Notes: a model not told the origin generated them from the sequence alone. A stretch of DNA of 64,000 bases from Escherichia coli (GCF_024700885.2 NZ_CP117016.1); one strand, 5' to 3'. Counted from the first letter of the stretch, positions 9,424 to 10,238 are shown. Translations and numbers: made by a program.

Positions 9424-10039
9424 TAGCGATAATTTTACTCATCATCCTTCACATCTGGCTCTGTAGACAGGATGGTGATCACTTCTTGAGTGAATCCAGA
9501 TTAAACATCTCATTGCTGATGCTTGATATTGAGCATCTTGCGCGCGGTAAGGGGCTGCGTTGAGATAAGGGCCAGTCATTACAAATACCAGGATTTAGCC
9601 TCGCATTCGCGGGGCTTTTTATTGCCATTACAAAAGCCACTCCCTACAGAGTGGCTTTGATAATGGCTTATACCCTACACGGGATAGCTTAACTGATATC
9701 CCTTTTAACGGATAAAGGTATTCAAGCCTGACACATCATGCGCTGTATCGTCGCCGTATTCCCGTATTAACAGAGACCGTAGCCCGACGGGGAACTCCTT
9801 CTGCGCGAGTGTGCGGGAATAATCAAAAACGATGCACACCGGGTTTTTACCGCGTTTATGGTTCGCGGGTTTGTCCCTCATGCTCGCCAGTCCTGTGCGG
9901 GGGTGGAAGAAACAGGACACTTACACAGATTCTTGTGGGCACGATGCTATGCCTTTCTGGATTATCCCGATGCCATTCATGCAAGGCGTTGTATCAGACG
10001 TTCGTCAGAGCTGTCAGGCTGACGGGTCCTCCCGGTGGG

Positions 10040-10230
10040 GTGGCCTGCCACGGGGCGGGAGCGTCGTGGAAAAAGGCTAGTTTTTGAAATTTCATTCGTC
10101 ATCACCACTACTATAATGTATTGATATTACAGTGATTTTATTTTTATGGTGTCGATTTTGATTGTTTTTTGTTCACCACTAACACCGTTTGCCTAAAGTT
10201 GTTCGCAAAATGCATGTTTAAAACATTCTG
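10040..10230. other. Candidate cos region (cosN/cosB)
   Basis: GGGGCGGGAGCG about 187 bp upstream of the small terminase start resembles the lambda cosN end GGGCGGCGACCT; AT-rich stretch with TTCGTCAT as near the lambda left end. Confidence 0.35.
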
Positions 10231-10238
10231 GAGCGGGT

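Follow-up and report, generated by a model that had tools for sequence, protein, structure and literature searches.

Positions 10024-10238 of a 64,000-nucleotide stretch of Escherichia coli DNA (GCF_024700885.2, NZ_CP117016.1; hereafter the window) very probably constitute the cohesive-end site (cos) of a lambda-type prophage resembling phages mEp460 and Ayreon, and this site is expected to work as that of phage lambda does. It lies in the 815-bp gap between the lysis gene Rz and the gene of the small terminase subunit (terS, product TerS), which is followed by the gene of the large subunit (terL, product TerL). The evidence comprises the sequence anatomy of the site, its pattern of conservation among related loci, the families of the two terminases and the termini deposited for related phages. 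The element is a lambda-type cos in a common prophage, and its cohesive-end sequence is already known as the opening of the record of phage cdtI (paper dated 2007). It is joined here to a DUF1441-type small terminase, for whose cosB no dissection was found in the literature read. Knowledge of cos packaging itself is unchanged by this site. However, the packaging cut site of a widespread prophage type is now placed, the mEp460 and Ayreon deposits not showing its position, and the coordinates are usable for work on transduction, on hijacking by phage-inducible chromosomal islands and on cosmid-type systems with DUF1441-type terminases.

Sequence anatomy and conservation of cosQ and cosN

The site comprises a cosQ heptamer, a 22-nt spacer and a cosN that holds the predicted 12-nt cohesive end (Table 1). 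The predicted nicks lie between 10052 and 10053 on the top strand and between 10064 and 10065 on the bottom strand, in the context CACG/GGGCGGGAGCGT/CG (slashes mark nicks). Placed side by side, lambda reads ...ACGGGTCCTTTCCGGTGATCCGACAGGTTACG/GGGCGGCGACCT/CGCGGG and the window ...ACGGGTCCTCCCGGTGGGGTGGCCTGCCACG/GGGCGGGAGCGT/CGTGG. The left half of cosN (CG/GGGCGG) and the CG after position 12 are kept as in lambda, and mismatches with the lambda cohesive end occur only at positions 7, 8, 9 and 11. The composite pattern GGGTCCT-N19-25-CGGGGCGG has a single match in the 64 kb and none in 100 shuffles. When an 80-nt core was aligned with the lambda cos core, as the earlier note on this DNA had advised, 54 of 83 positions were identical, with a score of 19 that lies about 7 standard deviations above shuffled sequences (n = 2000; mean -12.9, standard deviation 4.5, maximum 3).

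That note, made from the sequence alone, had pointed to a cos-like site in the gap, and the cosQ-spacer-cosN layout, the gpA-family TerL and the record termini of relatives bear it out. The 12-mer that it singled out, GGGGCGGGAGCG, is present at 10052-10063, 187 nt ahead of the terminase ATG; the site is right but its placement is not, the cohesive end spanning 10053-10064, one base further to the right. The proposed resemblance of this 12-mer to the lambda cohesive end holds for the composite and the layout, whereas the 12-mer alone does no better than chance. It is thus the larger layout (cosQ, the 22-nt spacer and a flanked cosN), and not the 12-mer alone, that is decisive for the identification.

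Conservation was assessed on 120 related loci obtained by scanning viral contigs for the motif that follows cosN; because these are mostly prophage contigs, their ends are uninformative about cos. Across the loci, cosQ and CACG/GGGCGGGAGC are nearly fixed, the spacer between cosQ and cosN is variable, and positions 11-12 of the cohesive end are GT, GG or AT. The Feiss laboratory has described lambda-like phages in the same way, with a highly conserved cosQ, conserved CG flanks and natural variation limited to bp 7-12 (PMC4669245). The segment 10065-10093 is likewise almost invariant among relatives. From the lysis genes to the body of terL, the window and cdtI have only 74 bp in common (10020-10093, -32 to +40, 93% identity). 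A literature search for the cohesive-end 12-mer returned nothing relevant.

As a side observation, the T at 10067 (in CGTGG, 3 nt past the bottom-strand nick) is confined to the window and Ayreon; the other 65 distinct aligned sequences read CGCGG, as lambda does.

Terminases

The large terminase matches the Pfam families GpA_ATPase (E 8.5e-72) and GpA_nuclease (E 1.1e-85), and aligns by BLASTP with lambda gpA at 24.6% identity over 623 aa (E 5e-19). According to Casjens, as cited in PMC12315714, there is a correlation between the gpA-type group of large terminases and 5' cohesive ends.

The small terminase belongs to Pfam DUF1441 (E 2.7e-41) and to phrog_141 (terminase small subunit). Neither terminase has a sequence match in the PDB. 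A structural model of the small subunit, built on an alignment of seven sequences (mean predicted local distance difference test score 75), has a strand-helix-helix-wing-helix domain at its N-terminus, with long helices after it. In the fold search, this model came closest to winged helix-turn-helix proteins of the MerR type and to one chain of the RppC-lambda TerS(1-98) complex (6HN7), but no match reached E 0.001. The predicted fold is consistent with Nu1-like DNA binding, but is no proof of it. The lambda-like cos phages are taken to include Gifsy-1 (PMC4669245), and a small terminase of the DUF1441 type is present in the closely related Gifsy-2, which suggests that a small terminase of the Nu1 family is not defining for the cos class.

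Record ends of related phages

The records of cdtI (AB285204) and Tritos (OV696610, prophage 3 of E. coli LF82) start with GGGCGGGAGCGTCGCGG and end with ...GCCTGCCACG. Their first 12 bases are GGGCGGGAGCGT, and their terminal CCACG is that of the left flank in the window. In the LLS record, a "5' extended single-strand cohesive site GGGCGGCGCGCT" is marked, its register being that of the window; the LLS authors arrived at this cos from the terminase class and the advice of M. Feiss, and they state that the Nanopore reads did not extend to the ends of the DNA at cos (PMC12315714). The record of the Hafnia phage yong2 opens at CGCGGG, directly past the second nick. In the texts that could be read on cdtI and Tritos (among them the LF82 paper), and in a search on yong2, no statement of measured termini was found. 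With these records, the nick positions in this prophage are strongly indicated on sequence grounds.

The record ends of mEp460 and Ayreon were rejected as evidence; they say nothing on cos because in both cases the authors had set the start of the record at terS. The Ayreon record (MF807953) has, at about 3630-3770, a 141-bp insert inside the cohesive-end 12-mer, corresponding to window positions 10056-10064. The insert, which holds a fragment of Ayreon's own small-terminase gene, is an artefact of assembly or gap filling where the physical ends lie. The coding sequence annotated there as "putative late gene regulator" spans the chimeric junction and is not real, so that a correction of the Ayreon annotation is a practical by-product of the analysis.

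Candidate cosB and proposed mechanism

The AT-rich stretch that the earlier note had seen after the cohesive end, with the suggestion of binding sites for terminase and integration host factor (IHF), was found with a G+C content of 0.31-0.39 over 10050-10250, compared with 0.5-0.6 on either side, and it contains a perfect predicted IHF consensus. This consensus, WATCAANNNNTTR, has only two matches in the 64 kb when both strands are considered, and cdtI has a fitting IHF core at an equal distance. The 11-mer ATCAATACATT within the IHF site also occurs identically in Gifsy-2 (about 600-615), on the opposite strand.

Around the IHF core lie short repeats. The 9-mer TCACCACTA occurs in two direct copies 71 nt apart, at 10102-10110 (+50) and 10173-10181 (+121), and a partial inverted copy lies between them; the R1-like spot reads TCATCACTAA in most relatives. 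The first repeat is placed where lambda has R3, a position that is homologous in Gifsy-2 and in the metagenomic relative L147. According to the title of Higgins and Becker 1994, listed in PMC9026076, lambda terminase cuts 47 +/- 2 bp from an R site. In Gifsy-2, GTCAGCACTGAA is followed by AATCAATACATTT and this by two copies of the 12-mer TTCGACACTGAA, one inverted (R2) and one direct (R1), and in L147 TCACCACT and AGTGGTGA flank an AT-rich centre. For Gifsy-1, the Feiss laboratory gives cosB as R3-I1-R2-R1 (PMC9026076). By analogy, we infer that the repeats of the window are arranged around the IHF core like the lambda R3-I1-R2-R1, a layout that is clearer in Gifsy-2 and L147 than here.

The motif TTCGTCAT at 10095-10102, for which the earlier note had drawn a parallel to the lambda terminase sites, is a coincidence. 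In lambda, TTCGTCAT stands at the 3' edge of R3 (R core CGTTTCC) at +67 to +74, whereas here it stands at +43 to +50, 23 nt nearer the nick; moreover, the small terminase is of another family and the motif is absent from the cdtI-type cosB. A second cos-like site at 53076-53131, where an IHF consensus and the Gifsy-2-type R-like 10-mer TCGACACTGA lie 35 nt apart, was set aside as chance because it falls inside a 417-aa open reading frame (ORF) read as nadR-like from sequence. A degenerate R-site pattern failed to recover two of the three candidates and gave no information when applied to the whole window.

In the mechanism proposed, IHF would bend the DNA at 10114-10146 to assist, and the gpA-family large terminase would then be positioned on cosN, nicking the two strands at the predicted positions. 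The product would have 12-nt 5' overhangs of sequence GGGCGGGAGCGT. Packaging would proceed rightward into the head and tail genes and stop at the next cos of the concatemer, where cosQ would be needed for the terminating cut. The exact nick positions, the repeats to which TerS would bind and the dependence on IHF are points that we infer.

Weighing of alternative explanations

Several points weigh against the assignment, and most of them speak for one or another alternative. A cos site nicked off the lambda register, or with an overhang other than 12 nt, is improbable, although it would agree with two anomalies of the mEp460_4F5 record (LR595868), whose break lies 5 nt to the left of where the nick is predicted (...GGCCTG/CCACGGGG, between window positions 10047 and 10048) and which lacks 3 nt just past cosN (GAGCGCGG versus GAGCGTCGTGG at 10064-10069 of the window). 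It would also agree with Gifsy-2, where the interval from CACG to CGCGGG is 14 nt and not 12, so that the length of the overhang is not guaranteed across the family. In addition, the starts of cdtI and Tritos are record starts, possibly set by homology to lambda. Nevertheless, the cdtI, Tritos and LLS records start in the lambda register, the yong2 record keeps this register while starting 12 nt later, and the CG dinucleotides that flank the two predicted nicks are kept, as they are in lambda (PMC4669245). The breaks in 4F5 probably reflect an end-of-assembly error; 2B8, a lambda-like record of that study, likewise has a break within its own 12-mer. If real, the 4F5 gap would be a deletion in the cosN flank of a viable phage.

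It is slightly less probable still that the cos site is a relic, surviving in a prophage that has become defective and has lost the ability to package DNA. The left prophage end lies outside the window; T10067 is a rare variant beside the nick; and many E. coli prophages are cryptic, DLP12 keeping a lambda-type cos beside a truncated packaging region. Yet terS and terL have full-length ORFs, as do the gpW-like and portal genes, the first 25 kb are 97-98% identical to the PhiR phages (induced, plaque-forming), Ayreon and mEp460, and Ayreon has the same T at 10067.

A merely coincidental resemblance to cos, with packaging by the headful (pac) route, is extremely improbable. In its favor, the 12-mer alone is not above chance (43 matches with at most three mismatches in the window versus 60.6 expected) and is mismatched against lambda GGGCGGCGACCT at four of its 12 positions, and the small terminase stands outside the Nu1 family, having neither a match to Phage_Nu1 in Pfam nor a BLASTP alignment to Nu1. 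Against it stand the gpA-family large terminase, the uniqueness of the composite site in the window, the conserved 74-bp island amid unrelated DNA and the agreement with the record termini of relatives. The lambda-type cos is hence the preferred reading; within it, the candidate cosB is open to the objection that the proposed R sites are motifs of 9-10 nt, the R2-like spot being a partial match that varies even in close relatives.

Genomic setting and distribution

The prophage is lambdoid, of the mEp460/Ayreon/PhiR47 type, and occupies the window from position 1 to about 35.7 kb. Its right end lies at about 35700-35800, where the chromosome (prfC side) resumes; the left end, with integrase and attL, is beyond the window. 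The features of the region are listed in Table 1. With Rz ending at 9423 and the small terminase starting at 10239, the gap lies between the two modules as the earlier note had it.

In the chromosome of strain MLI114, the 815-bp gap recurs at 100% identity. Over the gap, identity is 99.5% with Ayreon and 98.4% with mEp460, both of which are plaque-forming phages, which makes a functional site in this prophage likely. At least 80% of the gap was found in 766 of 5,426 complete E. coli genomes. A match to some portion of it was present in 4231 of the 5426, a count that refers to the whole gap and not to the block 9624-9917 discussed below.

Table 1. Features of the gap and of the neighboring genes, in window coordinates
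Feature	Position	Strand	Remarks
DNA methylase	7127-8179		
Holin, then endolysin	up to 8959		
Rz	8944-9423		Rz1 nested within
50-aa ORF	9411-9563	+	Overlaps the end of Rz; hydrophobic N-terminus; called by the Prokaryotic Genome Annotation Pipeline (PGAP) and in the mEp460 and Ayreon records
Gap studied	9424-10238		
Hairpin 1	9597-9621	+	8-bp stem with 6 G-C pairs, loop ATTC, then TTTTT
Hairpin 2	9624-9667	both	Outer stem GCCATTA/TAATGGC, inner stem AAAGCCACTC/GAGTGGCTTT
Mosaic block	9624-9917		Appears non-coding; ~88% identity with many lambdoid and Stx phages
71-aa ORF	9705-9920	-	Within the mosaic block
cosQ	10024-10030	+	GGGTCCT, the same heptamer as in lambda; predicted nick 22 nt further on
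cosN	10048-10069	+	Predicted cohesive end 10053-10064, GGGCGGGAGCGT; CG on each flank
Segment between cosN and cosB	10065-10093	+	Lambda I2 position; CGTGGAAAAAGGCTAGTTTTTGAAATTTC; right part of the 74-bp cdtI island
R3-like candidate	10102-10111	+	TCACCACTAC; +50 to +59 of the mature left end
IHF consensus core (predicted)	10114-10126	-	TATCAATACATTA; +62 to +74; exact fit to WATCAANNNNTTR
IHF site (predicted)	10114-10146	-	Includes the A/T tract 10135-10146
R2-like candidate, inverted	10146-10155	-	ATGGTGTCGA, minus-strand reading TCGACACCAT; +94 to +103; partial copy
R1-like candidate	10173-10182	+	TCACCACTAA; 9-mer copy 10173-10181 at +121
Small terminase	10239-10733	+	Pfam DUF1441
Large terminase	10733-12835	+	700 aa; gpA ATPase and gpA nuclease domains
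gpW-like protein, then portal	after 12835		

Remainder of the gap

Most of the gap is non-coding, as had been supposed, with the possible exception of its beginning. The 50-aa ORF at 9411-9563 matches phrog_11822 (function unknown) and has variable sites by codon position of 6/5/10, a slight excess at the third; an AGGA stands 4-5 nt ahead of its ATG. It is intact in all of 22 variants, so that the gap is perhaps not fully non-coding and the ORF may be a real small gene, although it is no part of cos. The 71-aa minus-strand ORF, which the earlier note had left uncalled, does exist but is not coding: it is interrupted by stops in 12 of 56 homologues, its variable sites (12/16/14 by codon position) show no third-position bias, and it has no match among Pfam or PHROG families. 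Two ORFs spanning cos, 9832-10080 and 9809-10087, were rejected because 22 of 88 homologues of the former and 7 of 99 of the latter carry stop codons.

Two hairpins had been noticed in the gap. The first, given as about 9600-9625 with a T-run, has a stem that spans 9597-9616, with TTTTT after it. It starts 34 nt past the 50-aa ORF, has a folding energy of -14.1 kcal/mol (z -3.6 versus shuffles), shows the G+C-rich stem-loop and directly adjoining T-run of an intrinsic terminator and is the only terminator-like site reported by the scan; the sole change in its stem among relatives is C to T, by which a C-G pair becomes U-G. The second is likewise present but is longer than the 9637-9664 first assigned to it. 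Its core, AGCCACTC/GAGTGGCT at 9635-9642 and 9649-9656, forms part of two stacked stems with 17 pairs in all (-26.8 kcal/mol on the plus and -30.1 on the minus strand; z -8.5 and -7.2). In Stx-phage variants, the inner stem is AGCCCATC/GGTGGGCT, both sides being changed and the pairing kept, and structure rather than sequence is conserved. An A-run precedes the inner stem and a T-run follows it, and the Ayreon record annotates a terminator there. Hairpin 2 is probably a two-way terminator, although less certainly so since only TTTG (plus strand) and TTTTG (minus strand) lie past the inner stem. As parts of cos, the hairpins were rejected; they lie about 385-455 bp upstream and are terminator-like.

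The mosaic block at 9624-9917, with hairpin 2 at its start, occurs in more than 300 phage records, many of which have unrelated, HK97-type packaging modules, and is unannotated in phages 2851 and Stx2a_F349. A 109-bp piece of it sits between borD and ybcV in DLP12 of K-12, and the block is therefore probably a remnant of a bor/ybcV-type moron region. It could instead be an unrecognized RNA or regulatory element rather than bor/ybcV debris. An identity with the small RNAs AgvB, AsxR or Pas was rejected; these lie near Q/pR', upstream of or adjoining the lysis genes, and not past Rz. A search of 8900-10800 against Rfam (E up to 1) gave only chance-level matches (mir-458, STnc560, AbsR28), far under the gathering scores.

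Comparison with known systems

As in lambda, the site lies between Rz and the small terminase gene, with the cohesive end 186 nt ahead of the ATG (190 in lambda), an AT-rich putative cosB in which a predicted IHF site lies between candidate small-terminase sites, and a gpA-family TerL. Differences from lambda are the spacer between cosQ and the nick (22 nt here, 23 in lambda), the DUF1441 small terminase, repeats that are unrelated to CGTTTCC, and a TerL only about 25% identical to gpA. The closest relatives are mEp460, Ayreon, mEp460_4F5 and vB_EcoS-569R4, whose small terminases are 99-100% and cos regions 97-99.5% identical to those of the window; cos is unmarked in these four records, and mEp460 differs by a G at position 12 of the cohesive end.

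LLS, mEp213 (putative cos GGGCGGCGCGCT, PMC12315714) and Gifsy-1 and Gifsy-2 of Salmonella share with the prophage a DUF1441-type TerS (47-58% identity) and a gpA-type TerL. LLS has the small terminase with 58% identity and a lambda-like cosQ and cosN, and Gifsy-2 resembles the window in having direct and inverted cosB repeats around an IHF-like site. The group differs in the cohesive end's right half and in the repeats (CATCATCATCAT in LLS, TTCGACACTGAA in Gifsy-2), and Gifsy-2 also has a divergent cosQ region and an IHF core on the opposite strand.

With cdtI and Tritos, the prophage shares an identical 12-mer, a near-identical flank from cosQ to cosN, the first 40 nt past the nick and a TerL that is 88% identical to that of cdtI from residue 21 onward, whereas cosB is unrelated from +41 on. 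The DNA from 10094 to 10831 is unrelated to that of cdtI, and identity returns at 86% through terL. The first 20 residues of TerL differ, and the small terminases of the window and cdtI are 42% identical, from which it follows that packaging specificity probably differs between the two. An observation that accompanies this is that cosB, the terS gene and the first ~100 nt of terL are exchanged as one block relative to cdtI/Tritos. From the boundaries of identity, cosQ/cosN and the adjoining segment travel with the nuclease body, and cosB with TerS and the N-terminus of TerL, a pattern that parallels lambda and phage 21 and looks like a natural exchange of packaging specificity. The N-terminus of lambda gpA contacts the small subunit.

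Two further proposals, taken jointly, are doubtful: that the block 9624-9917 is an RNA or regulatory element, and that the prophage and cdtI/Tritos form, within the DUF1441 family, a natural pair like lambda and phage 21. Such a pair would have cosQ, cosN and the TerL body in common and would differ in the modules cosB, TerS and TerL N-terminus; the cosB here would be a variant of R3-IHF-R2-R1 in which the IHF core is inverted with respect to Gifsy-2. Lambda and phage 21, for their part, share cosQ and cosN and differ in cosB and in small-terminase specificity (PMC4669245).

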